Below, piece by piece: positions 569 through 31,768 of a stretch of 64,000 nt of DNA (its first letter is position 1; the number at the start of each line of letters is the position of its first letter). The translations under genes were made by a program, and so were the position numbers. This stretch comes from a virus (Duplodnaviria; Caudoviricetes), in IMG/VR virus record IMGVR_UViG_3300013121_000026, positions 32,001 to 96,000 of that record; one strand, written 5' to 3'. The notes below the pieces were generated by a model. That model ran no database searches. It saw only the letters and a program-made list of their open reading frames with translations, and was not told the origin of the DNA.

Positions 569-645
569 CCTCCGTTCGCCTGGTGGTAAGGGTACGGGAT
601 TTTCACTCCCGGACATCGTGGATTCGACTTCCATACGGAGGACCA
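569..645 (+). tRNA. tRNA-Glu(TTC)
   Basis: CCTCCGT/ACGGAGG acceptor, CGGGA-TTTTCAC-TCCCG anticodon arm, CCA end. Confidence 0.9.
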
Positions 646-653
646 GATACTAG

Positions 654-681
654 TTGACATCAACAAAAACTAGTGTATATT
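654..681 (+). promoter_or_regulatory. sigma70-like promoter
   Basis: TTGACA-N16-TATATT; the same CTAGTTGACA context recurs at 12692. Confidence 0.55.
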
Positions 682-685
682 GCAG

Positions 686-975
686 ATGAGAGTTAGCTAC
701 TAGGAGTGCTTAGAACGTCTAGTCAGAATGCTAATACTCTGAGGCCAAACTGTGATGTCTCATATTTTAGGTACGTAAGTATAGAAGTGACTGGTACAAC
801 TTAGCTACCTTTGGCCAAAGGTCGAAATGCTAAGATGGGAGCAAGACGTGATGCTCGTTAGAATGCGGTTGGTTACCCTAAATAACCCATGTTAGACACG
901 GTTATCTAACTTAGATTGCATTAGGCGAGGGTGCAATTGAATTCCAAGCTAAACAATTCGTTTAGTTAGCTCGCC
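686..975 (+). ncRNA. Candidate multi-hairpin ncRNA(s)
   Basis: ATGAGA/TCTCAT, TTTAGG/CCTAAA and GGCGAG/CTCGCC domains downstream of a promoter; no ORF. Confidence 0.35.
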
Positions 976-985
976 TCGTTTTTAG

Positions 986-1060
986 GCACTATTAAGCATC
1001 TAGTGAGGCTGCTCGTCTGTCTAACGAGTGAGAGGGTGGCGGTAACCCTATAGTGCGCCA
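986..1060 (+). tRNA. tRNA-Asp(GTC), non-canonical T-loop GGCGGTA
   Basis: GCACTAT/ATAGTGC acceptor, CTCGT-CTGTCTA-ACGAG, GCCA end. Confidence 0.85.
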
Positions 1061-1154
1061 TATAAAAGGAGTACCAACAATGTTTTACAAGAGCGTGACC
1101 TATGATTAACTAGGGAGCAAAATAGTTTGCTCCTGAAATAGTCAGGAGGTCCAA

Positions 1155-1352
1155 ATGAGCAGCAAGGCTCGTGGCGGTCGTAAGAACCGCAAGTGGGATC
1201 GCAATCGTGTCTGGTGCGCGAATTACAAGAATCGCCATCAGCGTGAGAAGAACAAGCTGATCACTTTGAAGAAGCATGTTCTTGTTCACATCAACGATAA
1301 TTGTGCGATTCGTGCTATCGAGAACTGTGATCGCGTCATTCGCGGTTACTGA
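1155..1352 (+). CDS. Small, very basic hypothetical protein
   Basis: Strong AGGAGG SD; 65 aa, Arg/Lys-rich. Confidence 0.65.
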   Translation: MSSKARGGRKNRKWDRNRVWCANYKNRHQREKNKLITLKKHVLVHINDNCAIRAIENCDRVIRGY

Positions 1353-1424
1353 GAACTTGGGGAGTGCGAGCATTGGCAGTCAGCTTCGGTCGCACGTATT
1401 GTTAACGTAGGTGGGGACGTTGAC

Positions 1425-1498
1425 GCTCTTATAGTTTAATGTTAAAATTCTTGTTTCGTAATCAAGAGATGTGGGTTAGAGTCCTACTAGGAGCACCA
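1425..1498 (+). tRNA. tRNA-Thr(CGT)
   Basis: GCTCTTA/TAGGAGC acceptor, loop TTCGTAA, T-loop TTAGAGT, ACCA end. Confidence 0.85.
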
Positions 1499-1500
1499 AA

Positions 1501-1818
1501 ATGAAAAAACTAAAATCAATTTGTAAAATTCCAGTTTTTTCCGATGATTCTGAAATTAGAAAACAACAATTTAAGCAATTACATGACAAACAAATGCAAT
1601 TTGGAATTAATAACGGCTGGTGGGAAGAATTCGATCATAAAGGCCCTATTCGTGTTTGGTATATTAGTATAGAACAGTTTAATAACTGGCCTTCAGTCCT
1701 AGTTAATTGTGGCTTGTTTGCTTCTAAAAGCGAAGCCAGAAAAAATGGTCATAATAAACCATTGGAAATTGGAACTTTCTTGTTGTTCAAAGGCAGAGAA
1801 AAGTTTATCATATTCTAA
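1501..1818 (+). CDS. Hypothetical protein with an S4-like (TyrRS C-terminal-like) motif
   Basis: LVNCGLFASKSEARK resembles the S4 motif L...GL..S.SEAR. Confidence 0.5.
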   Translation: MKKLKSICKIPVFSDDSEIRKQQFKQLHDKQMQFGINNGWWEEFDHKGPIRVWYISIEQFNNWPSVLVNCGLFASKSEARKNGHNKPLEIGTFLLFKGREKFIIF

Positions 1819-1915
1819 GAGTTTTATGAGGCCGAGTTGGCTTGGTGGGTGGTGACCACACGTTGAAAATAACCTATTCAACGGCGTTGAGGTGCAACTC
1901 CTCATCCTCTTAACA
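1816..1915 (+). ncRNA. Aberrant tRNA-like element
   Basis: TAAGAG/CTCTTA ends, T-arm TGAGG-TGCAACT-CCTCA, extra hairpin CGTTGAA/TTCAACG, no 7-nt anticodon loop. Confidence 0.4.
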
Positions 1916-1921
1916 GTTAAT

Positions 1922-2008
1922 GCTAGAGTCCCATAGTGGTCGAGTGGACTGGTTTTGTAATCCAGTAGGGTAACCTCAACGTGAGTTCGAATCTCACCTC
2001 TAGCTCCA
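1922..2008 (+). tRNA. tRNA-Thr(TGT) with long variable arm
   Basis: GCTAGAG/CTCTAGC acceptor, loop TTTGTAA, variable region TAGGGTAACCTCAAC, TCCA end. Confidence 0.8.
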
Positions 2009-2227
2009 TATAAGGAATATTAATTTGTCAATACTTTGGAAATACAATTCTTTTACTGGGCGAGATTCACTAATGTTTGACGTTAGTGGCGATAGTTACC
2101 CAGTGTACCAATTAGTAAAATATAGAAAACCAAGATTAAAAAGACACAATAGAGTGCCAATTGAACATTGGTCAAGAATTGAAATTTGGAAAGACTATAG
2201 GATGTATAGAAACAAAGGGAAAAAATT

Positions 2228-2629
2228 ATGAAGACAATTGTACGTAGAGGCGTGTTTGAAACTAATTCTTCTAGTGCTCATTCACTAACATTTAATTCCC
2301 ACGACAACCTGGATCAGACACTTACTCCTAACGATGGAGTTATTGTTGTACGTGGTGAAGGTGAATATGGCTGGGAACAGGATGTATATTCTACCGCATA
2401 TTTTAAGACAGATTATTTGTATCAACAGTGGTTTGGGCGTGAAGACAAAATTGAACTATTAAAGCAGGCAATCGAAGAGCATACAGGCGCGCCTGTTATT
2501 TTTAAAGATCCGACGGGATACATTGACCATCAGTCTATGGGAATCTGCGATGGTATTCAAACTGTTGAAGACGTTAAGCAGTTTCTTTTCAACAGTCAAA
2601 ATAGATTCATAACTGACAACGATAACTGA
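2228..2629 (+). CDS. Conserved phage protein with FETNSSS motif, partner of the radical SAM gene
   Basis: RRGVFETNSSSAHSL N-terminus, GYIDHQS, C-terminal TDNDN. Confidence 0.7.
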   Translation: MKTIVRRGVFETNSSSAHSLTFNSHDNLDQTLTPNDGVIVVRGEGEYGWEQDVYSTAYFKTDYLYQQWFGREDKIELLKQAIEEHTGAPVIFKDPTGYIDHQSMGICDGIQTVEDVKQFLFNSQNRFITDNDN

Positions 2630-2655
2630 CAACGATAACTATTAAGGATTTTAAC

Positions 2656-3555
2656 ATGCTTCTATCTTCGTATATTAATGGAAACGGATTAGTGAAAATA
2701 TACGAAGACGGAACCAGAGAAATTTCCTTTGAGGATCAGTTCAAACCAACGATCCCTTTAAACATTGACATTCGAGTATCAACTCAATGTTCGTTTGGTT
2801 TTAATCCAAAGACTAAAAGAGCAACCTGCCAATTCTGTCATGAGTCTGCTACAACAGACGGGCAGGAATGTGATTATGGTTGGTTGCAGACACTAATCAA
2901 TAATTCAAAACTTCCAGCAGGAACGGAAATTGCTATTGGCTGCAACAATCTAACTGATCGTTTAGTTGAGTTCATCATTGCTAACCAAAAGATCAATAAC
3001 CACATCCATAATCTGACTGTTAATGCCGGTCACCTCAAAAGAGACCTGGACCGAATTGAACAGCTTATTAAAGACAAGATCATTTATGGGTTGGGTATTT
3101 CCTACAGAAGCAAATTTGTTAATTCCCATTTTGAAAGAGCTATTAAGAATGAAAATTCTGTGGTTCATGTAATCTGTGGCATTGATGATTTTAGTAAGGT
3201 ACAACAGTTATCAAAACTTGGTGTGAAAAAGATCTTGATCCTTGGTGAAAAAGACTTCGGATTCAATCAAGGAAAGGTTAATCTAAAATCCAAATCTCAT
3301 AATCACTGGTACTTTGGATTGCCACAATTATTTGCATCTTTCAAGGTGATTAGTTTTGATAATCTTGCACTAGAACAACTGGAAGTTAAAAGATTCCTAA
3401 CCCAAAAACAATGGGATGAATTTTACCAGTTTGAACATAGCATCTATATTAATGCCGTAGAAAAATACGTTGCTCCTTCATCAAGGTCATGTTATAAGAC
3501 TTATGAAGTAAATGACTTAGGAGAATATTTTAGGAATAATGGTCGATTAGTTTAA
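2656..3555 (+). CDS. Radical SAM-family protein with expanded cysteine motif
   Basis: NIDIRVSTQC-x12-CQFCHE, then EIAIG and SFDNLALEQL. Confidence 0.75.
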   Translation: MLLSSYINGNGLVKIYEDGTREISFEDQFKPTIPLNIDIRVSTQCSFGFNPKTKRATCQFCHESATTDGQECDYGWLQTLINNSKLPAGTEIAIGCNNLTDRLVEFIIANQKINNHIHNLTVNAGHLKRDLDRIEQLIKDKIIYGLGISYRSKFVNSHFERAIKNENSVVHVICGIDDFSKVQQLSKLGVKKILILGEKDFGFNQGKVNLKSKSHNHWYFGLPQLFASFKVISFDNLALEQLEVKRFLTQKQWDEFYQFEHSIYINAVEKYVAPSSRSCYKTYEVNDLGEYFRNNGRLV

Positions 3556-3614
3556 AAGTGAAACCCCTGTTTTACACGCAGGTGAAGAGGGAGCGTTACC
3601 TTCATCGACCACCA
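3541..3614 (+). tRNA. tRNA-Val(TAC), T-loop AGCGTTA
   Basis: GGTCGAT/ATCGACC acceptor, loop TTTACAC, ACCA end; overlaps the radical SAM stop codon. Confidence 0.85.
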
Positions 3615-3615
3615 T

Positions 3616-3689
3616 GGACCCTTAGCTTAAAAGTAGAGCAGGAGTCTTTTAAACTCTTGGCGACGGAGCGTTACCGTCAGGGTCTACCA
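3616..3689 (+). tRNA. tRNA-Lys(TTT), T-loop AGCGTTA
   Basis: GGACCCT/AGGGTCT acceptor, loop CTTTTAA, ACCA end. Confidence 0.85.
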
Positions 3690-3696
3690 ATTTAAT

Positions 3697-3773
3697 GCTG
3701 CTTAGGTAGATGTGGTCACTACGTTAGTTTGAAGCACTAAAGAACTCAGTTCGATTCTTGAGAGGCAGCACCA
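3697..3773 (+). tRNA. tRNA-Phe(GAA)
   Basis: GCTGCTT/AGGCAGC acceptor, TTAGT-TTGAAGC-ACTAA, ACCA end. Confidence 0.85.
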
Positions 3774-3782
3774 GTAAATAAT

Positions 3783-3857
3783 AGACCCTACGTATAAAGG
3801 TAGTACACCGGCCTCTTAAGCCGTGAGGACACGGTTCAATACCGTGAGGGTCTACCA
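3783..3857 (+). tRNA. tRNA-Lys(CTT)
   Basis: AGACCCT/AGGGTCT acceptor, loop CTCTTAA, ACCA end. Confidence 0.9.
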
Positions 3858-3863
3858 ATTTAT

Positions 3864-3934
3864 TCCTTGTCTCACAGGGAGAAGTGATAGCGGCCGCTAT
3901 TTACTTTCTAGTTCAATCCTAGAACAAGGAGCCA
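3864..3934 (+). ncRNA. tRNA-like RNA with a palindromic arm in place of the anticodon arm
   Basis: TCCTTGT/ACAAGGA acceptor, TCTAG-TTCAATC-CTAGA T-arm, GCCA end, central ATAGCGGCCGCTAT palindrome. Confidence 0.65.
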
Positions 3935-3945
3935 AATATGTCGCT

Positions 3946-4163
3946 GGAAGTGATGAAAAACAGCGGCTCCACCCCGCAAGGGTTCTACGGATCGTAGACG
4001 AAAGGTGAGTATTTCACGCAGAGGGTTCTTTTGAAGCAAATTGCTGCCCTTGGTAATAGCTCCCACGGGGGCTATTATTACCCAGATAAGGAAGTGAACG
4101 GAGTAGCGACGGAAGCGCCCGATAAGCGTTTTGTAGAAGGGGCGGAACCTTCCACTTCCACCA
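3946..4163 (+). ncRNA. 218-nt CCA-ended tRNA-like RNA with a large internal domain
   Basis: GGAAGTG/CACTTCC acceptor, ACCA end, T-arm GAAGG-GGCGGAA-CCTTC, several internal hairpins. Confidence 0.65.
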
Positions 4164-4178
4164 TTAGGAGTATTAAAC

Positions 4179-4502
4179 ATGAAATATACTCATAGCGACA
4201 ATCACAGTTGGTTTTATCGTGCTGCTGAACGTCAGCCAAAACCATGGATCGAAACAAATTTAAATGAAACTGATACAATAATGTCTCATTTCCGTAAATT
4301 TGTTCAAGTACACGACGCAGATATTTGCGGTGATAAAATTATGTTCTTTGAATTTGATAATGGTAATTGCTATCGATTGTCATATTCCTGGTGGATTGAA
4401 TATGATCCAGAATGGGATTTAAAAGAAGAAATTGAGATTACTAAAGTTAAAAAAGAAGAAACAAAGAACCTTTATTCCAATAGAAATTGGTTAGTTGTTT
4501 AA
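4179..4502 (+). CDS. Hypothetical protein
   Basis: AGGAG SD, 107-aa ORF. Confidence 0.6.
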   Translation: MKYTHSDNHSWFYRAAERQPKPWIETNLNETDTIMSHFRKFVQVHDADICGDKIMFFEFDNGNCYRLSYSWWIEYDPEWDLKEEIEITKVKKEETKNLYSNRNWLVV

Positions 4503-4506
4503 TAAT

Positions 4507-4611
4507 TCCTTGCTGGTGTAATGGTAGCACAAGAAGTCCGAGACACTGAATGAATAGTGTAATAGGCAAGTAAAAAATGCTAGGAGGAACGTTCGATTCG
4601 TTCACAAGGAT
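4507..4611 (+). ncRNA. tRNA-like RNA with expanded central region
   Basis: TCCTTG/CAAGGA acceptor, D-arm GTGTAATGGTAGCAC, T-arm GAACG-TTCGATT-CGTTC, about 55 nt replacing the anticodon arm. Confidence 0.55.
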
Positions 4612-4618
4612 GAAATTT

Positions 4619-4704
4619 GGGGGAACGGCAGAGTTGGAGAGCTGCGGCAGACTGTAAATCTGTTCTCTATGAGTGAGTGGGTTCGAATCTTACTTCCCCC
4701 ACCA
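4619..4704 (+). tRNA. tRNA-Tyr(GTA)
   Basis: GGGGGAA/TTCCCCC acceptor, loop CTGTAAA, long variable arm, ACCA end. Confidence 0.92.
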
Positions 4705-4710
4705 GATTGT

Positions 4711-4786
4711 GACGAGTTGCCAGAGTGGTTATATGGAGCGGTCTGCAAAATCGTTTACGTGAGTTCAATTCTCACACTCGTCTCCA
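4711..4786 (+). tRNA. tRNA-Cys(GCA)
   Basis: GACGAGT/ACTCGTC acceptor, loop CTGCAAA, U73, CCA end. Confidence 0.92.
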
Positions 4787-4843
4787 AGTTGACATTTATT
4801 CGACACTATGCTAAAAATTATCCTAAACATAGGAGATTGATTT

Positions 4844-5083
4844 ATGGATGATTATGTGAAGAAGAATTTCAATTGTTATGATCGCGTCAAGATTGTTAAT
4901 TTTCCGGAGGATAATGAAAATAATGGTAGGCTAGGAACAGTAGTTGGTTGTTCGTTTGTAGACATTATTAACCATTACATTGTGATCTTGGATGATGAGA
5001 TTGAACGATTTGATTGGGTTGAAAATATTTCAAAGCGTTGGAGAGCAGTATCAATCACTGAAGTTTGTTTGGAAAAGGTTTAA
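4844..5083 (+). CDS. Hypothetical protein, possibly SH3-like beta-barrel
   Basis: AGGAG SD; FNCYDRVKIV..GRLGTVVG. Confidence 0.6.
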   Translation: MDDYVKKNFNCYDRVKIVNFPEDNENNGRLGTVVGCSFVDIINHYIVILDDEIERFDWVENISKRWRAVSITEVCLEKV

Positions 5084-5086
5084 ATT

Positions 5087-5156
5087 GGGGTGTGCTCAGG
5101 GCAAGCAGGAATCCTTTGCAAGGAATCTGAGGTGAGTTCGAGTCTCACACACTCCA
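5087..5156 (+). tRNA. tRNA-Ala(TGC), degenerate D-arm
   Basis: GGGGTGT/ACACTCC acceptor with G3-U70, loop TTTGCAA, canonical T-arm; no encoded CCA. Confidence 0.7.
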
Positions 5157-5179
5157 CAGAACTTTAACAGGAGACAGAA

Positions 5180-5668
5180 ATGTCATATTTTGAAGGTTAC
5201 ACCGAGTATCTTTGCAAAGAAGGTCACTATTTTGTTGATAGTTGTTATATGGATACAAGCGTAGAACGCTGTCCAGAATGTGGCGCAAGTATTGAATATG
5301 CCCATGACGTAGACATAACTAGTGGACAAGATGAAGCTGCTAAGGTTAAAATTGGTCATACTGATATTTGGTCTGTAGACCATTATGGTAACAAATATGC
5401 CAATAAAATGATGTTTTTTAAACCTGCCGAAGGAAGTGATTGGAAAAAAATTAAAACTCATAGTATTTCTGCTACTGAAGTCAAACAATTAAAAAACGGA
5501 ATTTATGAAATAACATGGTGTGATGGGGGAACATCATTAGCAGCAGTTGGAACACTACATAATAGTAATAAGTGGTTTGCTCCAATTAACTGGACGGGCA
5601 CTAGTGAAAAGCATATTGCTTGTACCGATTGGGCAATGGTTGTTAGTGTAAAATTAATCTCCTCTTAG
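5180..5668 (+). CDS. Hypothetical protein with zinc-ribbon motif
   Basis: AGGAG SD; CKEGH..CPECG. Confidence 0.65.
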   Translation: MSYFEGYTEYLCKEGHYFVDSCYMDTSVERCPECGASIEYAHDVDITSGQDEAAKVKIGHTDIWSVDHYGNKYANKMMFFKPAEGSDWKKIKTHSISATEVKQLKNGIYEITWCDGGTSLAAVGTLHNSNKWFAPINWTGTSEKHIACTDWAMVVSVKLISS

Positions 5669-5735
5669 CTTAACTGTATAGAGCACTTGAATACGAATCA
5701 AGTAGGTGTGGGTTAGAATCCCATGGAGGAGTCCA
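5659..5735 (+). tRNA. tRNA-Arg(ACG)
   Basis: CTCCTCT/GGAGGAG acceptor, CTTGA-ATACGAA-TCAAG, T-loop TTAGAAT, CCA end. Confidence 0.85.
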
Positions 5736-5938
5736 CTATGAATGATGATTTTTACTTTGTGATTGCATCAAAATATCGCGAAAATGAACCTATAGATAAA
5801 CCTGGTAATTTTTGTTCTTATTGTTATCACAACGTAGTAATTCATCATGGTACAATCGAACAAGCAAAATATCTGTTGAATTATATCAACAAGAAAGACT
5901 TAAAAATTTACAAATTGAAATTTGAGGAAGTAGAATAA

Positions 5939-6088
5939 TTGTGGCATTATTGGGCTAAAGCACTTGGTGAAAAAGCCAGTGACAATTCAACAGAAGCGGA
6001 TAAAATCGCTTGGATACGAACTGGAATTGTGCTAGTATACATCATTACAAATTTCTTCATTATAGCTGGAATTATTCATCATTGGTAA
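5939..6088 (+). CDS. Small membrane protein of a type seen in T4-like phages
   Basis: TTG start; (M)WHYWAKALGEKASDNSTEADKIAWIRT...NFFIIAGIIHHW; absent from the ORF track (49 aa). Confidence 0.65.
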   Translation: MWHYWAKALGEKASDNSTEADKIAWIRTGIVLVYIITNFFIIAGIIHHW

Positions 6089-6093
6089 AATAT

Positions 6094-6171
6094 CTGGGTA
6101 TAGCTCAGCCTGTTTAGAGCGCCTGTCTTGGGCACAGGAGGCCGCAAGTTAGAATCTTGCTACCCAGACCA
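6094..6171 (+). tRNA. tRNA-Pro(TGG)
   Basis: CTGGGTA/TACCCAG acceptor, loop CTTGGGC, T-loop TTAGAAT, ACCA end. Confidence 0.88.
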
Positions 6172-6177
6172 GTTTAT

Positions 6178-6263
6178 TCGAGGATGCGCTAACGGTAGGC
6201 AAGCGGACTTTGAATCCGTGCTAGCTCAAAAGAGCTATGAAGGTTCGATTCCTTCTCCTCGAT
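6178..6263 (+). tRNA. tRNA-Gln(TTG) with long variable arm
   Basis: TCGAGGA/TCCTCGA acceptor, loop CTTTGAA, variable hairpin TAGCTC-AAAA-GAGCTA. Confidence 0.8.
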
Positions 6264-6346
6264 CTCAAACATCCAGAAAACAAAAAAATTAAAAAAACAG
6301 ACACTATACAAATAGGGTTTGTTAGAAGTAGAATTAAAAAGAATAT

Positions 6347-6420
6347 TTCGGAATCGTCTAATGGTAGGATCTCTGGCTCTGAACCAGAGGGTATTTGTTC
6401 GAATCAAATTTCCGAAGCCA
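6347..6420 (+). tRNA. tRNA-Gln(CTG)
   Basis: TTCGGAA/TTCCGAA acceptor, TCTGG-CTCTGAA-CCAGA, GCCA end. Confidence 0.9.
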
Positions 6421-6425
6421 ATAAT

Positions 6426-6501
6426 GCAAGCTAGGCCGATCTAGTGATGGCGACAGACTGTGGATCTGTTGAGGCTGGAGCGTAACCAGCAGCTTGTACC
6501 A
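6426..6501 (+). tRNA. tRNA-His(GTG), alphaproteobacterial type
   Basis: G1-U72, A73, T at position -1; loop CTGTGGA; T-loop AGCGTAA. Confidence 0.88.
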
Positions 6502-6507
6502 AAATAT

Positions 6508-6583
6508 TGCGGGTTGGAGGAGAAGATGCCTTGACTGGTTCATACCCAGTAGACACGGGAGCAACGGCCCGTACCCGCTTCCA
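6508..6583 (+). tRNA. tRNA-Met(CAT), initiator-like 1:72 mismatch
   Basis: TGCGGGT/ACCCGCT acceptor, ACTGG-TTCATAC-CCAGT, 8-nt T-loop AGCAACGG, CCA end. Confidence 0.75.
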
Positions 6584-6587
6584 ATTT

Positions 6588-6645
6588 AGGATGCCTGCAG
6601 CAACTCAAAAAATCTTTCAGCAAAAAAGAGCAAAGGTGCATCCTG
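6588..6645 (+). ncRNA. CNGCA stem-loop RNA unit A (Y-RNA-like candidate)
   Basis: AGGATGC-CTG-CAGCA...GCATCCT-G; internal TCTTT-CAGCAAA-AAAGA hairpin. Confidence 0.7.
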
Positions 6646-6654
6646 TTAAATTTA

Positions 6655-6774
6655 AGGCTATCTACAGCAACTAATTTGGGTCTTGTATACCCGTGGTCGT
6701 TGGTTCGAAGCCAACCTAGGTTATTTGTTAACCTAGTAGCTCAGTTTGGTAGAGCACGTAAAATGTATAGCCTG
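6655..6774 (+). ncRNA. CNGCA stem-loop RNA unit B containing a circularly permuted tRNA (YrlA-like architecture)
   Basis: AGGCTAT-CTA-CAGCA...ATAGCCT-G enclosing anticodon arm, T-arm, looped acceptor stem and D-arm in that order. Confidence 0.8.
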
Positions 6775-6785
6775 TTTTAATATAT

Positions 6786-6860
6786 ACGAGTGTAGCTTAG
6801 TCTGGTCTAAAGCACTGGTCTCCAAAACCAGCAACGTGGGTTCGAATCCTACCTCTCGTG
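6786..6860 (+). tRNA. tRNA-Trp(CCA)
   Basis: CTGGT-CTCCAAA-ACCAG anticodon arm, canonical D- and T-arms, G73. Confidence 0.9.
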
Positions 6861-6861
6861 C

Positions 6862-6936
6862 GCCAACATAGCTTAATGTTAGAGCTCCTTCATGGTAAGA
6901 AGGCAGATGTGAGTTAAACTCTCACTGTTGGCTCCA
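6862..6936 (+). tRNA. tRNA-Thr(GGT)
   Basis: GCCAACA/TGTTGGC acceptor, loop ATGGTAA, T-loop TTAAACT, TCCA end. Confidence 0.85.
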
Positions 6937-6943
6937 GTTTTTT

Positions 6944-7035
6944 GGAAGAATGGCCGAGAGGTTTATGGCAGCAGTTTGCTAAATTGTCGTACCTTGAAAA
7001 GGGTACCGTGAGTTCGAATCTCACTTCTTCCACCA
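6944..7035 (+). tRNA. tRNA-Ser(GCT)
   Basis: GGAAGAA/TTCTTCC acceptor, loop TTGCTAA, long variable arm, ACCA end. Confidence 0.9.
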
Positions 7036-7042
7036 AAATTAT

Positions 7043-7078
7043 AGAGGGCATAGCTGTTAAAACTATGCCCTCTCCTTT
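7043..7078 (+). terminator. Hairpin after the tRNA block, possible terminator
   Basis: AGAGGGCATAG/CTATGCCCTCT 11-bp stem with a short T tail. Confidence 0.45.
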
Positions 7079-7188
7079 AACTTACTGACAACTGATTGGA
7101 AAAGAGATATATCATTATCTAGTAGTTGACTATTTTTTCTTACCATGTTACTATTAGAGACCTTCACAACAAAAGGAGAATTTATACT

Positions 7189-7395
7189 ATGGGCGAAGAA
7201 AATACTAACGAAAACACTTCTGGCAAGTCTTTGTTTGATCAGGCAACTGCTGAGGCGCAGAAGTCTCGTCGTAGCGCTGCTCTTGCAGAAGTTAAGAAGC
7301 ACGTTGAAATGATTAAGACGGCCGAAAAGACGATTGCAGTTGCTAAGCAGGCGATTGCAAAGATTGAAGAAGACTTCAAGAACGGCACCTTCTAA
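7189..7395 (+). CDS. Small coiled-coil hypothetical protein
   Basis: AAGGAG SD before the ATG at 7189. Confidence 0.65.
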   Translation: MGEENTNENTSGKSLFDQATAEAQKSRRSAALAEVKKHVEMIKTAEKTIAVAKQAIAKIEEDFKNGTF

Positions 7396-7413
7396 ACAAA
7401 AAGGGGAACAAAT

Positions 7414-7935
7414 ATGTTCGAGTTCATCCATCATGGTGGATTTTATGCTGAAGTTTGTTCCCCTAATTTCTATTTGCATAACAACATTGTTTTTTACATT
7501 CCACCAATTACAATTAATACACATGATCTTGACAAAGGTGGGAATTGGAAGCTAACTGCTAGTCGGAAATCCCATTCATCATCAATTCGAATTCGTGTGT
7601 TTGATCATGAAACTGGATTTGCATTTGGTTTTAGAGTTCCTGGATTTAATGCCAAGAACGAAAATCATTTGTTTGATGAAGTTAATAATTTATTCCAGTC
7701 TAAAATCTTAATTAAAAATAGAGTCTACAAAACATTTACTTTTGAAAGAGCAAATATTGTTGCTACTAATCTATACAAGGAAATTGACGACAACTGGATT
7801 AAGGAAAACGTTGTCGAAATGCTTGATAAGTATAATGAGAAAATCAAAAGTGAACTTGGTGATTTTCGTGTTAAAGAAGATGAACAGACATGGTGGCCTT
7901 ATAATTGCCCACCTGAAATGAGACTAACAGAATAA
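7414..7935 (+). CDS. Hypothetical protein
   Basis: 173-aa ORF with SD. Confidence 0.6.
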   Translation: MFEFIHHGGFYAEVCSPNFYLHNNIVFYIPPITINTHDLDKGGNWKLTASRKSHSSSIRIRVFDHETGFAFGFRVPGFNAKNENHLFDEVNNLFQSKILIKNRVYKTFTFERANIVATNLYKEIDDNWIKENVVEMLDKYNEKIKSELGDFRVKEDEQTWWPYNCPPEMRLTE

Positions 7936-7937
7936 AT

Positions 7938-7976
7938 GGCTCCGTAGCTCAGCAGGACAGAGCAACAGCCTTAAGA
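7938..7976 (+). pseudogene. 5' half of a split tRNA (Arg-like body)
   Basis: GGCTCCG-TA-GCTC-AGCAGGACA-GAGC-A-ACAGC-CTTAAGA; its acceptor strand pairs with CGGAGTC at 8875-8881. Confidence 0.7.
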
Positions 7977-8011
7977 AGAACACCTCAGAAAATAAGTTTA
8001 ACAGAATAAAT

Positions 8012-8094
8012 GCGGTTGTAGCCGAGGAGAGTTTCTACCTCTTTAAACGTAACTGGAGCTGAAAATGCGGGTTCGAATCCTGCCAACCGCGCCA
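8012..8094 (+). ncRNA. tRNA-like RNA with non-canonical D and anticodon regions
   Basis: GCGGTTG/CAACCGC acceptor, GCGGG-TTCGAAT-CCTGC T-arm, GCCA end. Confidence 0.6.
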
Positions 8095-8233
8095 TCAAAA
8101 AGTATCTATATTTAAATAGTAAAATTTCTGCAATCTTCCTTGGAGGAAATAATTTGTAAATTAATGAGTCCAACGACAATGTCTAATTTTTCTTTTTGTT
8201 GTTTTTGAGGTTTATAATAAACTTCATTAAAAA

Positions 8234-8735
8234 CATGCTTATCCGGTTAACACATACAATTCCCTGTGCTAGTTTTTGGTCATCGGGCAATACCGCCATT
8301 TCATGGAGGCTTTCATGGCTCACGTAACGATCGAAACCGACTCCAATGGCAACGTTGTTCTGGTCGAACCCAAGCGCCGCGCCGGATTGGACCAACGTGT
8401 ATTTCGTCAGATTGGCGTTCACTATGAGTGGGCTCATTTGAACGACTGGCGCGAACACGGTGGCCGCGCTCGTTTTTACGGTTGGGCTTCTAAGGAACTT
8501 CCCGCCACCATGACATCGCAGGAGGCGTAAATGAACGACGTTGAAGAATGCCGCCGCTGCAACGGGTCTGGCGAAATTGCGATAAGCACGCGAGACGGTC
8601 ATTTTATTGCTCCGGGACCGGTTCCAGACGACGCTACCGGGTTTGCCGTCGCAACCTGCGATGAATGCCGTGGAATGTGCTACGTTGAAGACGGATCAAC
8701 CTTTGGAGGATGTATGTTCAAACCGGATAAGCATG
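8234..8735. mobile_element. 502-bp non-autonomous insertion cassette (MIC/MITE), IS1595-family-like
   Basis: Perfect 15-bp TIR CATGCTTATCCGGTT (8234-8248, 8721-8735); 8-bp TSD ATTAAAAA (8226-8233, 8736-8743); GC-rich interior; no transposase. Confidence 0.85.
8315..8530 (+). CDS. Cassette passenger gene 1, hypothetical
   Basis: GGAGG SD, GC-rich codons. Confidence 0.65.
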   Translation: MAHVTIETDSNGNVVLVEPKRRAGLDQRVFRQIGVHYEWAHLNDWREHGGRARFYGWASKELPATMTSQEA

Positions 8736-8740
8736 ATTAA
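8531..8740 (+). CDS. Cassette passenger gene 2, DnaJ-type zinc-finger mini-protein
   Basis: AGGAGG SD; CRRCNGSG and CDECRGMC. Confidence 0.65.
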   Translation: MNDVEECRRCNGSGEIAISTRDGHFIAPGPVPDDATGFAVATCDECRGMCYVEDGSTFGGCMFKPDKHD

Positions 8741-8846
8741 AAAGACTATAAATATTCATGTGGGACTCCTTTGGTTTTATGCATTTAGTTCTACAGACCA
8801 TGGGTATTTGTACTACCGCGATGGTCACTACTATTTATAAAAACTG

Positions 8847-8885
8847 GAGCTGAAAATGCGGGTTCGAATCCAGCCGGAGTCACCA
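8847..8885 (+). pseudogene. 3' half of the split tRNA
   Basis: GCTGA-AAAT-GCGGG-TTCGAAT-CCAGC-CGGAGTC-ACCA. Confidence 0.7.
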
Positions 8886-8896
8886 AATTATTTTAA

Positions 8897-8971
8897 GCGT
8901 CCGTAGTTCAACAGCGGAATACTAGTTTGCCAAACTAGAGGTCGTGGGGGCGGCACCCACCGGACGCTCCA
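8897..8971 (+). tRNA. tRNA-Gly(GCC), T-loop GGCGGCA
   Basis: GCGTCCG/CGGACGC acceptor, CTAGT-TTGCCAA-ACTAG, TCCA end. Confidence 0.85.
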
Positions 8972-9090
8972 AATAAATGTGTTGTAATCTTTATCTTTTG
9001 TGTTACAATGATTTTCGTAACAAGGAGAACGCAATGTACACCGAAAAACAATTGTATGACGCACTTTGTGAGGTATTGTCTAGTGAATAA

Positions 9091-9175
9091 GCGCCTATGG
9101 CGGAATTGGCAGACGCGGTAGACTTAGAATCTATTTCCTATAGGAGTGGGGGTTCAAGTCCCTCTAGGCGCACCA
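9091..9175 (+). tRNA. tRNA-Leu(TAG)
   Basis: GCGCCTA/TAGGCGC acceptor, loop CTTAGAA, long variable arm, ACCA end. Confidence 0.92.
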
Positions 9176-9191
9176 TTAATAGGAGAACACA

Positions 9192-9437
9192 ATGAGTGAA
9201 GATGCTTTGAACACTATCATAACTGCTAAAAGCAAGAAAGAAGCAATGCAGGCTGCTATCTATATTATTGAAAGAAATATAGAAGCTGCTGCGGAACGAC
9301 ACTATTCCGAAATAATTTTCAAGCCTGATTACCCTAGTCAGAGCACTTATGAAAAATATGCAGCTACCTATTGTAAATGGGAAATTGAAACAATTAAAAC
9401 TTTGGAAAGGATGATAGACGAAATCATCACTGAATAA
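9192..9437 (+). CDS. Hypothetical protein
   Basis: AGGAG SD. Confidence 0.6.
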   Translation: MSEDALNTIITAKSKKEAMQAAIYIIERNIEAAAERHYSEIIFKPDYPSQSTYEKYAATYCKWEIETIKTLERMIDEIITE

Positions 9438-9465
9438 AAGCACTTATAACGAAAAGGAGATTAAT

Positions 9466-9684
9466 ATGAACTATGCCGTATTGACTCGTAAAAGTGATAA
9501 GGAACCCTGGCTTCTTCTTAATATTTGCGAAGATTCCAACGCAGAAAAAACAGCACTAAACTATATTAATCTTTGGAGAGGTGTTTTTCCGGGTAATATG
9601 TTTAGTATTGCTAAACGAGAAGAGCATAAAATGAAACGTTGCTTGCATACTAACAACACTGATGGATTTCCAGAAGTTAGGTAA
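9466..9684 (+). CDS. Hypothetical protein
   Basis: AAGGAG SD. Confidence 0.6.
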   Translation: MNYAVLTRKSDKEPWLLLNICEDSNAEKTALNYINLWRGVFPGNMFSIAKREEHKMKRCLHTNNTDGFPEVR

Positions 9685-10186
9685 CCTTCTTCATATAACC
9701 AGTAATAAATTCCCTGGGGATATGCGGAAATCTTAACTCCGTGGTCTGATAATATTCGTGGTCCTGTTTACCATTACGTTTGTGTTGATCATAATGACTT
9801 TTGTTTGTAAGACGCTGGCGAGCATAGTCAACATTACCACGAATTTTTGTATCCATGTGTTTGTCTGCCCATTCCCTAGGAATCTTAGCAACAATCGTTG
9901 CTCGTTCATTGTGAGGAACGTGTTGAGCCTTTCCTTTGGCTCCACGAAAATTGGCCTCGCCGCCGTGCATTGAAGCGTAACCATGCGCTGTATGAGGATC
10001 ATGTGTCATGGATACCCATCCATTGGGACCTGCTTTAATCCCTTCAGCAGCAATTGCTTTTAAATTGGATTGATGTGTGCCATGATACATTATTAAATGA
10101 TTGCCATTGCCCCACCAGCCAATATCTGGGTTCTTATTAAATTCTGTTTGTTGCATTTCGTTTAAAAACTGTCTGAGTGTTTTCAT
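9677..10186 (-). CDS. ADP-ribosyltransferase-fold protein, probably virion-internal
   Basis: MKTLRQFLNE capsid-targeting-like N-terminus; YHGT...I..EGI, WVSMT..P..A.GYA, late Glu (TELRF). Confidence 0.6.
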   Translation of the reverse strand: MKTLRQFLNEMQQTEFNKNPDIGWWGNGNHLIMYHGTHQSNLKAIAAEGIKAGPNGWVSMTHDPHTAHGYASMHGGEANFRGAKGKAQHVPHNERATIVAKIPREWADKHMDTKIRGNVDYARQRLTNKSHYDQHKRNGKQDHEYYQTTELRFPHIPREFITGYMKKVT

Positions 10187-10319
10187 TCTTGACCTCTTAT
10201 GGCAATTATGTTATATTTATTACTGTTATACTTCGGCCTCTGGTTTATCTACGCCTCTACTTGAACTAACAAGAGATGAACAAATCTCCATGGAAATTTG
10301 TTCAGGAGTCGTCAAATGT

Positions 10320-10405
10320 GGAGGGTAGCACTCAATGGTGGGTAACTGGTCTTGAAAACCAGGCTGACCGAAAGGTCAAGGGTTCGATTCCTTTGCCCTC
10401 CTCCA
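10320..10405 (+). tRNA. tRNA-Ser(TGA)
   Basis: GGAGGGT/GCCCTCC acceptor, loop CTTGAAA, long variable arm. Confidence 0.9.
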
Positions 10406-10456
10406 CTTCCCTAGTTTTAAAACTAGGTGGCACCCCAGCGGTACAGGAGATTTAAT

Positions 10457-10708
10457 ATGAAAGTCCTTTTGATTTTGATTTTGTTTATGACTCCTGCTAA
10501 TGCGTTCTTGATGGGAGAACTTGATCCTGCTCTAGAACGAGAATACCACAATCCACCAACCTATGAAGATTGCTATAGACTTGGTTGGATTCGTGGTGTT
10601 CATTTTGAAATTTACGGTGAAGAAAAGGCATGGATGGATCAGTGTCTAGCGAACAAAGTTTCGTTCCATTTAAATGGGCGGGCAAACAAAGGTCGCCAAA
10701 AGAAATGA
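10457..10708 (+). CDS. Secreted hypothetical protein
   Basis: AGGAG SD; MKVLLILILFMTPANA signal peptide. Confidence 0.6.
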   Translation: MKVLLILILFMTPANAFLMGELDPALEREYHNPPTYEDCYRLGWIRGVHFEIYGEEKAWMDQCLANKVSFHLNGRANKGRQKK

Positions 10709-10734
10709 TTCTTTGTGTTCGTTTGTTAAAGTAT

Positions 10735-10809
10735 AGCTCTAGGGCGGCAGGGTGTCGCAAGTTCCTCATAAGGACTACAAGAACGGTTCGATCCCGTTTA
10801 GAGCTACCA
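10735..10809 (+). tRNA. tRNA with CAT anticodon (elongator Met or Ile2)
   Basis: AGCTCTA/TAGAGCT acceptor, loop CTCATAA, ACCA end. Confidence 0.8.
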
Positions 10810-10823
10810 AGAGATAAAATTTA

Positions 10824-11129
10824 ATGTTAGAAAAGCACCAAAAAATAATTAATAGAACAGAAGAAAAAATTCGTAAGAAAGTTGCTATTCTTAGGGATAA
10901 GATCAAACTACATAATAAGAAGCTAGAAGATTTTCAAAACAACGATTGCCCTCATCCTAATCTAACATACACAGCCAAAGGCTCTACCGGTAATTGGGAT
11001 AGAGAAAACACTTATTGGTATGAGTGGTGCTGTGATTGCTGCGGCAAACGTTGGATTACAAATCAAGATGAGGAAGGAAAAGAAACGAGATCCCGTTTTC
11101 CTCATGCAACACAAAAGAGAGAAATTTAA
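10824..11129 (+). CDS. Hypothetical protein with zinc-binding motif
   Basis: CPH...CDCCGKRW. Confidence 0.6.
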   Translation: MLEKHQKIINRTEEKIRKKVAILRDKIKLHNKKLEDFQNNDCPHPNLTYTAKGSTGNWDRENTYWYEWCCDCCGKRWITNQDEEGKETRSRFPHATQKREI

Positions 11130-11130
11130 A

Positions 11131-11814
11131 TTGAAATACGCATTAATATCTGATCTACACATTGATTTTTTGCCAGATCAAACTGTACATGAACTAGTTC
11201 AACACATTAACGTCAATACGACTGATGTTGATGCTATTCTCAATGCTGGTGATATTGCGGAAAATTTAAATAAACGTGAGGAGTTCTTCAATCAAATCAG
11301 TAAACCAACTTTTCATGTAATGGGAAATCATGACTATTACCGTTCTGGTGGTGGAAGAACATTAGAATATGTTCCAGAGCATGACATGGTATTAGCTACT
11401 CTTTGGACTAATTTTAATAATGATGTCGATTGTGTTATGGCTGCTCGAAAATATATCATGGATTTTCGTCTTATTAATTTTTGGTCACACCTGGATATGA
11501 ACAAAGCATATAAGGAAACTATTGAATTTATTGAGAATCATCGACCTAAAATCGTGGTCACACACTTTGGTCCACACAAAAAAGGAATCGCTGAGAAGTA
11601 CAAAAAGAATGAAGAAAAACTTAATAGGTACTTTATTAATGATTGCTCCAGCACTATTAAGAAAGTTAAGCCTGCTGTCTGGGCATTTGGACATACACAT
11701 TCTGCAATTGATACAACCGTTGGCAAAACTAGAATCATTGCAAATCCAATGGGTTATCCGAACGAAAATTACTACTTAATTAAAGACTATCCAATCGTAA
11801 AATTTGACGCTTGA
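11131..11814 (+). CDS. Calcineurin-like metallophosphoesterase
   Basis: SDLH, AGD, GNHD, THF and GHTH motifs; TTG start at 11131 preferred over the ORF-track start. Confidence 0.88.
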   Translation: MKYALISDLHIDFLPDQTVHELVQHINVNTTDVDAILNAGDIAENLNKREEFFNQISKPTFHVMGNHDYYRSGGGRTLEYVPEHDMVLATLWTNFNNDVDCVMAARKYIMDFRLINFWSHLDMNKAYKETIEFIENHRPKIVVTHFGPHKKGIAEKYKKNEEKLNRYFINDCSSTIKKVKPAVWAFGHTHSAIDTTVGKTRIIANPMGYPNENYYLIKDYPIVKFDA

Positions 11815-11839
11815 CAAACTAACCAGACTGTTTTACGAT
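11811..11839 (+). promoter_or_regulatory. sigma70-like promoter
   Basis: TTGACA-N17-TACGAT just upstream of a tRNA. Confidence 0.55.
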
Positions 11840-11853
11840 ACTCTTGTTAAAGT

Positions 11854-11943
11854 GGACCCATAGTTTAAAGGTAAAACACCAGTTTTATAAACTGTACTCC
11901 GGATTAGAGGGTAATATAGGTTCGAGTCCTATTGGGTCTACCA
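11854..11943 (+). tRNA. tRNA-Ile(TAT) with long variable region
   Basis: GGACCCA/TGGGTCT acceptor, loop TTTATAA, about 20-nt variable region, ACCA end. Confidence 0.8.
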
Positions 11944-12025
11944 ATTTTAATATTGACGATGAAGATCAAAAAGTAATTAACACTATTAGGTGCCGTGTTC
12001 CTCAATTTAAAAGGAAAGATTAATC

Positions 12026-12601
12026 ATGAAACGTGCAATTGTAGGACTATTTCTTTTGTTGACAACTTCAGCTAACGCTGCTAATGTTCGGTTCTATGAA
12101 AGCAACAAGAACAAAGATTGGGAAATCTTTGGCGTAGTCAAATCTGATAAGGGCATACCTTATGATAGATGTTTGATGCAGAGGTCCTACAAGGATGGTT
12201 CCTACATTCAGTTAATCAAAGACCTTTCAAACAATCAGACGCATATGCTGATTGCCAATGCCGAATGGAATCTAACAGTTACTCCTGAAAATAAGCCAGA
12301 TGGCAAATCTAGAATTTTCTTCATTAGGAATTCTGAAATCGCCGATGGATCTTCTAATTTTTTTATTATTGGGAAGAAAGAGATAATTTTTCCGGACCTC
12401 AATGAAGAATTCTTGCGTAATTGGATCGAGTATAAAGCAGTCCTCGTCATTATGCCACCTGAGTATAACTTTGTGAAGTTTACTTTAGATAATACGACCA
12501 ATGCTCTGATGGAACTGGTAGACTGCATCAAAACCTATAACAAGTTGCCTCAGAAGAAACAAACTCCTATTCTTCCTAATGCAGTTGAAAGAAAGGCATA
12601 A
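12026..12601 (+). CDS. Secreted/periplasmic hypothetical protein
   Basis: Signal peptide MKRAIVGLFLLLTTSANA. Confidence 0.7.
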   Translation: MKRAIVGLFLLLTTSANAANVRFYESNKNKDWEIFGVVKSDKGIPYDRCLMQRSYKDGSYIQLIKDLSNNQTHMLIANAEWNLTVTPENKPDGKSRIFFIRNSEIADGSSNFFIIGKKEIIFPDLNEEFLRNWIEYKAVLVIMPPEYNFVKFTLDNTTNALMELVDCIKTYNKLPQKKQTPILPNAVERKA

Positions 12602-12611
12602 ATAACTTAAC

Positions 12612-12686
12612 GCGGGTGTGGTATAAGGGTTGTGCCTTGGCCTTCCAAGCCAAAGAAGTCCAGTTCGAGTCTGGCTACCCGCTCCA
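12612..12686 (+). tRNA. tRNA-Gly(TCC)
   Basis: GCGGGTG/TACCCGC acceptor, loop CTTCCAA, TCCA end. Confidence 0.9.
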
Positions 12687-12738
12687 AAATACTAGTTGAC
12701 ATTACGATTGAATGTGTTAAATTAATCAAATGCAACTT

Positions 12739-12822
12739 GGGCACGTGGTGAAATCGGAAAACACGAAAGACTTAAAATCTTTTGCCTATGGCTTGTCGGT
12801 TCAAGTCCGACCGTGCCCACCA
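12739..12822 (+). tRNA. tRNA-Leu(TAA)
   Basis: GGGCACG/CGTGCCC acceptor, loop CTTAAAA, long variable arm, ACCA end. Confidence 0.92.
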
Positions 12823-31011: not shown

Positions 31012-31370
31012 TGGAACTGTTTAACATTCTAATCGCTGCTTATTTGCTTTGGATTCCAATTGCTATCTACAAAACAATGGTGGATTATTACAAAGTCTAT
31101 CAATTTGTCGAAGATAGCAAAGACGAGTTCCCGTATTTGTCTGCGGATATTTTTCGCGAGATCGAAAACTCGTCTATGATTTACTATTTTTTCAGAACAG
31201 TAACATTTTCCAGAAGTGCGTCACATTTTATCGAACCAATCAACATGATTATTAATAAAAAGTACAGTGTGGATGCATTAAGAAAAGATATTAAAATTAG
31301 CAAGGAAATTTTGGCTAAAATTGAAAAAGCACTCCAAACCAAACCAGTTGACAATAACGACGAAAAATAG
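31011..31370 (+). CDS. Hypothetical membrane protein
   Basis: N-terminal transmembrane helix. Confidence 0.55.
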   Translation: MELFNILIAAYLLWIPIAIYKTMVDYYKVYQFVEDSKDEFPYLSADIFREIENSSMIYYFFRTVTFSRSASHFIEPINMIINKKYSVDALRKDIKISKEILAKIEKALQTKPVDNNDEK

Positions 31371-31455
31371 TATAAATATAACGTTATGTTCAGTACTGTG
31401 GGAAGTACAGGCCGACAACGCTAGGACAAGGTTCGAATCCAAAACATAACAATTG

Positions 31456-31743: not shown

Positions 31744-31768
31744 TTTTTATTTTAACAAAAAGTGAATT

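Follow-up and report, generated by a model that had tools for sequence, protein, structure and literature searches.

Textbooks list G18, T54, and Psi55 as invariant in cytoplasmic transfer RNA (tRNA), and the flat face of the 19:56 pair provides the stacking surface for the ribosome, RNase P, and T-boxes. At the canonical elbow, residue 18 of the D-loop intercalates between nucleotides 57 and 58 (T-loop positions 4 and 5), with a single hydrogen bond to Psi55 at position 2. Residue 19 forms a pair with C56 at position 3, and U54 and A58, at positions 1 and 5, form a reverse-Hoogsteen pair (PMC4810234). Here, we describe phage tRNA genes in which these contacts are altered in matched sets. The genes lie in a 64,000-nucleotide (nt) stretch of DNA (the window). 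Its source is a phage genome in IMG/VR (IMGVR_UViG_3300013121_000026) that is 160,761 bp long and has direct terminal repeats, and the window spans bases 32001-96000 of it. On balance, we lean toward reading these odd-elbow genes, from their sequences, as genuine, translation-competent phage tRNAs with two internally compensated versions of the elbow, which the phage would have inherited from a widespread mobile pool and not invented itself.

An A54/A60 T-loop is known in eukaryotic initiator tRNA. In the window, one tRNA, with the anticodon CAU, has A54:A58. Like the genes described here, metazoan mitochondrial tRNAs depart from G18 G19 and T-Psi-C (PMC4810234). They often lose the interaction between the two loops and have evolved together with a ribosome and RNase P of their own, whereas the phage tRNAs keep a compensated elbow and must use bacterial machinery. 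T-loops outside tRNA follow the consensus UGNRA/YGNRA, from which tRNA is an outlier with U at position 2. In these other RNAs, the intercalating nucleotide is an adenosine in 99.96% of flavin mononucleotide (FMN) riboswitches, and a GGAAG T-loop exists in ribosomal RNA (rRNA) (bioRxiv 10.1101/2022.12.26.521914). With respect to gene content, the closest counterparts are the L-arrays, such as the trn operon of Anabaena (PMC8421152). Both are extra, horizontally mobile sets of tRNAs, and Nostoc/cyanobacterial contigs were matched by our probe for A18 tRNAs. L-arrays are long, dense runs of co-oriented tRNA genes on bacterial chromosomes or plasmids. The genes in the window differ in forming a phage cluster with interspersed open reading frames (ORFs), and PMC8421152 is silent on the elbow. 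In the literature, we found no paper describing A18/G55 covariation or a three-state covariation of 54:58 in tRNAs, and this widespread tRNA design is apparently undescribed.

Elbow sorting within the phage tRNA operon

The source phage is T4-like, with a gp23 capsid protein and gp6-type baseplate proteins, and its GC content is ~38%. It encodes ~31 tRNAs. About 29 of the genes are co-oriented and spread, with ORFs among them, over ~13 kb (window 569-12822), and two further tRNA genes lie just upstream. We parsed the tRNAs in three ways: from the raw sequence, from the bracket structures of ARAGORN (default and lowered threshold), and with a custom cloverleaf parser, the last being used for the two genes (Asp and CAT) that were found by no tool.

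An initial annotation of the window had listed ten tRNAs with altered elbows, and the T-loop strings that it quoted, together with their places, were exact in every case. Six tRNAs (Asp, Val, Lys-UUU, His, CAU, and Gly-GCC) have G55; all of them have AG in the D-loop and none has GG. Four others (Thr-CGU, Arg-ACG, Pro-UGG, and Thr-GGU) have A56, and all four have GT in a D-loop that lacks GG. The remaining 20 phage tRNAs are canonical, combining GG with U55 C56, and there are no mixed cases. The exact probability of such perfect sorting is 1/C(30,6) = 1.7e-6 for A18/G55 (class 1) and 1/C(30,4) = 3.6e-5 for U19/A56 (class 2).

The D-loops of 7 nt share one register, in which positions 4 and 5 distinguish canonical tRNAs (NNNGGNN) from the G55 class (NNNAGNN) and the A56 class (NNNGTNN). 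Because this register is fixed, there is no ambiguity as to which nucleotides are 18 and 19. We considered and rejected the reading of AGT as G18 U19, which puts U19 opposite C56 and conflicts with the 7-nt register. Chance, misalignment, or an artifact of assembly would be a conceivable source of the pattern, given that the D-loop AGT can be read as A18 G19 U20 or as G18 U19 and that the genome is a metagenome assembly, but we find this explanation highly improbable. Besides the register, the Watson-Crick reading of 19:56 is consistent in every case, mixed cases (A18 with U55) do not occur at background frequency, and the probabilities are low both in the genome (2e-6 and 4e-5) and outside it (down to 1e-101). 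Independent sequencing runs also reproduce the sequences. Activated-sludge runs of three studies (2015, 2019, and 2025) contain the same phage, with no differences in the pieces covered. Contigs from other activated-sludge runs (two further studies) are identical over Val, Arg, Pro, and part of Gly, an exact match that rules out an assembly artifact.

In class 1, the initial annotation had described a change from G18-U55 to A18-G55. The swap itself is present, but this wording understates what has changed, as 54:58 is also rewired in all six tRNAs. The new combination is A:U in Val, Lys, and His, G:G in Asp and Gly, and A:A in the CAU tRNA, which has an 8-nt loop and is the sole exception in the window to the 54:58 states U:A, A:U, and G:G. 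An Ile-like gene, a seventh G55 member (Table 1), has G:G. Throughout the class, G55 at loop position 2 is accompanied by a purine (G57 or A57) at position 4. At positions 1 and 5, the class 1 loops of the window have A:U, G:G, or A:A in place of the pyrimidine and A of the general T-loop motif, and many IMG/VR and GTDB members of the class, with UGCRA, have the latter combination. In class 2, Watson-Crick complementarity of 19:56 is retained as U19:A56 in 4/4 tRNAs.

Two canonical neighbors have unusual T-loops as well. The tRNA-Asn(GTT) gene just upstream of the window (genome 31591-31665) has the loop GTCGGAG, with G54 and G58 next to normal U55 and C56, and 54:58 is thus able to change independently of 55. 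The tRNA-Phe(GAA) gene (window 3697-3773) has an 8-nt T-loop, TTCGATTC.

Covariation in independent phage and bacterial tRNAs

A megablast search of cultured phages gave no match to close relatives, a search in distant mode gave tRNA-sized matches only, and two proteins of the tRNA region had no usable relatives in IMG/VR. Relatives of the capsid protein were at most 68% identical, and the one complete relative (G001) has canonical tRNAs only. Because the collections held no close relative, we tested the covariation on independent data, using probes that specify only the D arm and counting well-formed, unique cloverleaves. Probe 1, applied to IMG/VR, was a common D arm in which TTA comes after a lone G. 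Probe 2 was the 7-nt D-loop AANAGTA and was applied to both IMG/VR and GTDB.

The covariation claimed in the initial annotation persisted in a proper alignment and in the independent data from both databases. In IMG/VR, every A18 tRNA recovered by the two probes had G55 (78/78). With probe 1, D-loops with A18 G19 were accompanied by G55 C56 in 13 of 13 cases. D-loops with G18 U19, recognized by a pyrimidine before the G (n = 23), were accompanied by U55 A56 in 16 cases, by UUC in 5, and by other sequences in 2 (Fisher's exact test, P = 6e-9). Probe 2 recovered 65 unique cloverleaves from IMG/VR, with at least a dozen anticodons, and all 65 had G55 C56. Their 54/58 nucleotides were A/U (31), G/G (23), U/A (10), or G/U (1), such that three states (U:A, A:U, and G:G) cover 64/65. 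In GTDB species genomes, the same probe found G55 C56 in 46 of 53 cloverleaves (54/58: U/A 24, G/G 12, A/U 9, and C/A 1). These matches came from bacteria of the Candidate Phyla Radiation (CPR), Verrucomicrobia, Cyanobacteria, Melainabacteria, Planctomycetota, and others.

The tRNAs that flank the probe matches behaved in the same way. Among 1,300 unique flanking tRNAs, a D-loop without GG was associated with G55 C56 (P = 1e-101), and AG was present in 104 of the 105 tRNAs that lacked GG and had G55 C56; class frequencies in this sample are underestimates, as ARAGORN called no GGC loops in it. The flanking tRNAs also included a third compensated state, in which a D-loop with GA (A19) is accompanied by the T-loop TTT (U56) in 18/18 cases (e.g., IMG/VR loci L094, L126, L132, L139, and L151). 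Whole arrays of tRNAs with UGC loops occur at IMG/VR loci L099, L132, and L146. Flanking-tRNA loops with normal U55 C56 had A/U at 54/58 in 23 cases and A/A in 12.

The loop strings of the window are themselves widespread. AGCGTTA, AGCGTAA, GGCGGTA, and GGCGGCA recur exactly in unrelated phage contigs and in bacterial genomes. In CPR bacteria (Levyibacteriota, Daviesbacteria, Microgenomates, and Uhrbacteria) and some gammaproteobacterial metagenome-assembled genomes, tRNA-His has A18, C73, and the T-loop GGCAGCA, GGCGGCA, or AGCGTTA (GTDB loci L316, L327, L330, L339, L342, L346, L376, and L385). These seem to be the organisms' own tRNA-His. In the complete but distant relative, as in three tRNA-rich phages from culture, the tRNAs are almost wholly canonical. 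The exception is tRNA-Cys of Xoo-sp13, in which the T arm differs from that of the XacN1 tRNA-Cys orthologue only by U55G and the GG of the D-loop is replaced by AG.

Single changes at 18-55, 19-56, and 54-58 abolish the function of a yeast suppressor tRNA in 45/47 variants (PMC4117946), which would explain why the changes appear only in matched sets. We propose that in class 1 (Asp, Val, Lys-UUU, His, CAU, Gly-GCC, and probably Ile-GAU), the general T-loop rule takes the place of the G18/U-Psi55 contact. Loop position 2 would be occupied by G, adenosine A18 would serve as the intercalating base, G19-C56 would be retained, and the closing pair 54:58 would be exchanged as well, for A:U or G:G. 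In class 2 (both Thr tRNAs, Arg, and Pro), G18/U55 would be retained and the outer Watson-Crick pair G19-C56 would become U19-A56, an exchange that should leave the flat stacking face of the elbow intact. Here we infer the three-dimensional arrangement, charging, and use in translation from the sequences and from published work.

Relative to the canonical elongator elbow (G18-Psi55, G19-C56, and T54-A58), the phage tRNAs keep the same cloverleaf, positions, and loop sizes (except in the CAU tRNA), as well as a Watson-Crick pair at 19:56. Class 1 replaces G18, U54, U55, and A58, and class 2 replaces G19 and C56. Since class 1 has neither U54 nor U55, T54 and Psi55 are impossible and the UUC motif is absent; class 2 reads UUA. 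Relative to the general T-loop motif of riboswitches, rRNA, and RNase P, the loops share the G at position 2, the purine at position 4, and an available adenosine, and GGCRG resembles the GGAAG of rRNA. They differ from it in lying inside a tRNA, in keeping a Watson-Crick pair between position 3 and residue 19, and in that A54:U58 is not a Y-A combination.

The odd-elbow genes, their detection, and their surroundings

The odd-elbow genes look like intact, usable tRNAs. All ten listed genes form a cloverleaf with a 7-bp acceptor stem, a 3- to 4-bp D stem, a 5-bp anticodon stem, and a 5-bp T stem. The anticodon loop has 7 nt, U33, and a purine at 37 in nine of the ten, the exception being Asp, with U37. 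CCA is encoded in all 11 genes, including the Ile-like one, and for most of them the cloverleaf is the structure of minimum free energy (MFE). The initial annotation had gone further, regarding them as functional tRNAs under selection to alter the elbow. Intact and apparently usable genes bear out the first part; selection in this phage does not follow, as the same designs are widespread and were probably inherited together with the genes.

Further evidence for function is circumstantial but consistent. For Asp, Val, His, and Pro, the phage has no tRNAs other than odd-elbow ones, so its set of 20 amino acids depends on odd-elbow genes, and the codon families served by odd-elbow tRNAs make up a large share of its long ORFs. 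The acceptor-stem nucleotides listed for Gly and Pro in Table 1, along with A20 of Arg, fit the identity rules of E. coli. In the His tRNA, the G1.U72 pair, A73, the lack of G-1, and the 9-nt D-loop together constitute the identity set of the delta-G-1 alphaproteobacterial tRNA-His and its histidyl-tRNA synthetase (PMC3064791), a match that speaks for genuine use. In what it suggests about the host of the phage, this set appears to agree with an alpha-type circularly permuted (two-piece) transfer-messenger RNA (tmRNA; window 31344-31787, tag GNDNVDYALAA). The anticodon loop of the Ile-like gene, CCGAUAA with C33, recurs in other genomes. The closest Pro tRNAs in cultured phages are canonical (GG/TTC).

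TABLE 1 Odd-elbow tRNA genes, with positions in the window
Gene	Class	Position	Strand	D-loop	T-loop	Other features	Detection
tRNA-Asp(GTC)	G55	986-1060 (body 986-1057, then CCA)	+	AG, no GG	GGCGGTA (G54 G55 C56 G57 G58)	G73; CCA encoded; unusual U37; stem pairs (parser): acceptor 7/7, anticodon 5/5, T 5/5; MFE structure is the cloverleaf	R1 32.5 bits (E = 1.6e-8)
tRNA-Thr(CGT)	A56	1425-1498	+	AATGTTA (G18 U19)	TTAGAGT		ARAGORN; Rfam 60.8 bits
tRNA-Val(TAC)	G55	3541-3614	+	AAAAGTG	AGCGTTA (A54 G55 C56 G57 U58)		ARAGORN; Rfam 44.1 bits; R1 60.6 bits
tRNA-Lys(TTT)	G55	3616-3689	+	AAAAGTA	AGCGTTA		ARAGORN; Rfam 53.1 bits; R1 76.1 bits (inflated, as the model shares its D arm with this gene)
Ile(GAT)-like tRNA	G55 (seventh member)	4090-4163	+	D arm nonstandard: two Watson-Crick pairs and a possible tandem G.A	GGCGGAA	Acceptor 7/7; A73; CCA; C at position 33	R1 at 4090-4160, 29.7 bits (E = 1.2e-7), D arm skipped as a local end; not detected by ARAGORN or Rfam
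tRNA-Arg(ACG)	A56	5659-5735	+	AACTGTATA (G18 U19 A20)	TTAGAAT		ARAGORN; Rfam 49.9 bits
tRNA-Pro(TGG)	A56	6094-6171	+	AGCCTGTTTA	TTAGAAT	C1-G72, A73	Rfam 64.5 bits
tRNA-His(GTG)	G55	6426-6501	+	ATCTAGTGA (9 nt)	AGCGTAA	G1.U72, A73, no G-1	Rfam 39.7 bits; R1 32.8 bits; ARAGORN at lowered threshold only
CAT-anticodon tRNA (Met or Ile2)	G55	6508-6583 (body 6508-6580)	+	AGAAGATG	AGCAACGG (8 nt; A54 G55 C56 A57 A58)	U1.U72 mismatch; CCA; 20/21 stem pairs (parser); MFE structure is the cloverleaf	R1 24.4 bits (E = 5.7e-6)
tRNA-Thr(GGT)	A56	6862-6936	+	AATGTTA	TTAAACT		ARAGORN; Rfam 58 bits
tRNA-Gly(GCC)	G55	8897-8971	+	AACAGCG	GGCGGCA (G54...G58)	G1-C72, C2-G71, G3-C70, U73	Rfam 47.8 bits; R1 57.2 bits; ARAGORN at lowered threshold only

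As had been anticipated in the initial annotation, standard tRNA finders miss or under-score these genes. ARAGORN at its default setting missed four of the ten, Rfam missed two, and His appeared only in permissive Rfam scans. Eight of the ten were above the gathering threshold of RF00005 (29 bits), at 39.7-64.5 bits. For Asp (986) and CAU (6508), there was no ARAGORN call, even at the lowered threshold, and no Rfam match at E <= 10. We also built a covariance model, R1, from 65 unrelated IMG/VR tRNAs of the A18/G55 class. It detected all six G55 genes at E <= 6e-6, including Asp and CAU, which are invisible to Rfam.

Some or all of the genes might have no part in translation and might instead be decoys for tRNA-targeting defenses, partners of a module resembling Ro60 and Y RNA, or decaying pseudogenes. 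The failure of Asp and CAU against the Rfam tRNA model, the U37 of Asp, and the C33 and weak D arm of the Ile-like gene would be in keeping with such an origin. The same is true of the other tRNA-like oddities and the YrlA-like RNA in the operon, and of the gene for a DUF2828/DUF7788 RNA-binding protein 5 kb downstream of the operon. We nevertheless consider this unlikely. The genes have full cloverleaves, an encoded CCA, correct anticodon loops in 9/10 cases, and identity elements (His, Gly, Pro, and A20 of Arg), and the anticodons for Asp, Val, His, and Pro are nonredundant. Compensation at two or three tertiary contacts would also be unexpected in decaying genes, and the design is conserved across many genomes.

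Other parts of the region contain features related to tRNA. The ORFs between the tRNAs encode one Fe-S oxidoreductase-like protein and families of unknown function, with nothing else recognized. A YrlA-like (Y RNA-like) match lies inside the tRNA operon (window 6671-6788; 44.4 bits versus a gathering score of 69). The DUF2828/DUF7788 protein (phrog_850, "RNA-binding protein"; Ro60/TROVE-like) is encoded ~7 kb downstream of this match (window 13845-15221), and the two may constitute a phage Ro/Y-RNA module. A long extra arm is normally confined to Leu, Ser, and Tyr tRNAs. In the window, tRNA-Thr(TGT) (1922-2008), tRNA-Gln(TTG) (6178-6264), and tRNA-Ile(TAT) (11854-11943) are 87-90 nt long and have long extra arms, and XacN1 and Xoo-sp13 have 86-91-nt tRNAs for Lys, Gly, Thr, Cys, and Asn, too. 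Upstream of Thr(TGT), a 99-nt structure with the T-loop TGCAACT (1816-1914) was called by ARAGORN at the lowered threshold; owing to its poor anticodon arm, we excluded it from the tRNA count.

Several further genes are interrupted or aberrant. At window 7938-8885, a tRNA is apparently split by a ~0.9-kb insert, which holds a GC-rich block (~8276-8740) and, at 8012-8094, a second tRNA-like gene with a poor D arm; a ~30-bp repeat of the 3' half is found at ~8051-8080 and ~8842-8871. Two tRNA-like pieces (3864-3934 and 4504-4618) have a common acceptor, TCCTTG...CAAGGA, and a normal TTC T arm, with middles that are aberrant or interrupted. An aberrant Ala(TGC)-like gene (5087-5157; Rfam 21 bits, no CCA) shares 86% identity with a stretch of Caulobacter phage CcrColossus that has no annotation. 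Of the 61 records matched in the distant search, 28 were from Caulobacter phages.

Possible reasons for the persistence of rewired elbows

Nucleases that read the T-loop offer one reason why phages might keep such tRNAs. CbCash, a Schlafen nuclease associated with clustered regularly interspaced short palindromic repeats (CRISPR), cuts tRNAs 5' of U55 at UUC, and single U54 or U55 mutants are uncut (PMC13462974). Phage tRNAs are known to escape anticodon nucleases by changes in the anticodon loop (PMC10264068). Like those defense-evading tRNAs (PMC10264068; T5 tRNA-Lys versus PARIS, PMC11464382), the odd-elbow tRNAs differ from host tRNAs at nucleotides that nucleases read. In the known cases, the changes lie in the anticodon loop or stem, whereas in the tRNAs of the window they lie in the elbow, and the mode of action may be alike.

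Our preferred reason for persistence is that the rewired tRNAs would be insensitive to readers of the T-Psi-C loop in the host (Schlafen-type T-loop nucleases, for example), and that the phage would thereby retain a private supply of tRNAs. The initial annotation had raised two ideas, escape from nucleases that read the elbow and freedom from dependence on TrmA/TruB; such a role is plausible, given that a published T-loop nuclease needs U54 and U55. That elbow rewiring protects the private tRNA supply strikes us as a real possibility, although one that falls short of being probable. We are more doubtful of a broader proposal, according to which a second, self-consistent elbow architecture (A18/G55 with A54:U58 or G54:G58, together with 19:56 swaps) circulates in phages as a mobile tRNA design because it is invisible to TrmA, TruB, and Schlafen-type nucleases and would amount to anti-defense by means of tRNA tertiary structure and not of the anticodon loop.

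It is also possible, though less likely than not, that the tRNAs work and the elbow variants are neutral, compensated double changes that became fixed in the mobile pool with no role in escape. Such neutrality would suit designs that are apparently native in diverse bacteria (tRNA-His of CPR bacteria, Verrucomicrobia, and Cyanobacteria) and present in many unrelated phages, and a phage that mixes three designs in one operon with no evident amino-acid pattern. A search of the phage genome for T-loop nucleases and RNA repair, which covered the families Schlafen/AlbA_2 and RtcB only, returned no match, a result that also favors neutrality. On the other hand, single intermediates are strongly deleterious in the sole available deep mutational scan, which makes repeated fixation by drift hard. 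The design is moreover enriched in phage tRNA clusters, including the whole arrays at L099, L132, and L146, and the published antiviral nuclease needs exactly the nucleotides that have been removed.

Several observations weigh against compensated, translation-competent tRNAs that persist by escaping T-loop readers. Some of the genes have defects (U37 in Asp, C33 and a poor D arm in the Ile-like gene, and an 8-nt T-loop and 1-72 mismatch in CAU), and these three tRNAs could be impaired. In the wider samples, UUC is kept by 5/23 U19 tRNAs and 7/53 A18 tRNAs; the rules are strong, not absolute. Many of the probe matches share one D arm, possibly by descent, and the counts overstate the number of independent events. 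A survey of riboswitch T-loops combined with a genetic screen finds a strong requirement for Y1-A5 (bioRxiv 10.1101/2022.12.26.521914), and we found no structural precedent in the literature for A54:U58. The designs are native in some bacteria, as in the tRNA-His of CPR bacteria, where no phage conflict need apply. Finally, the step to defense evasion would depend on one enzyme, CbCash, from an unrelated organism.

The window adds an operon in which a single phage combines three elbow designs, along with the variants A54:U58 and G54:G58, an odd tRNA that bears a host-specific identity signature, and the link to the general T-loop rule. If such tRNAs work and are widespread, the tRNA sets of phages and CPR bacteria are undercounted: in this phage, standard tools overlook two to three genes, and Asp is served only by a gene that they cannot see. 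G18, T54, and Psi55 are relied upon by tRNA finders, by modification enzymes, and by at least one antiviral nuclease. If our preferred reading of compensated elbows is true, the general T-loop rule is a workable basis for rebuilding the elbow of a tRNA, and tRNA engineering could draw on such elbows as scaffolds that are orthogonal by nature. If they also persist for the reason we prefer, phages would guard their translation supply by means of the nucleotides that define the shape of the tRNA and not those of the anticodon loop.

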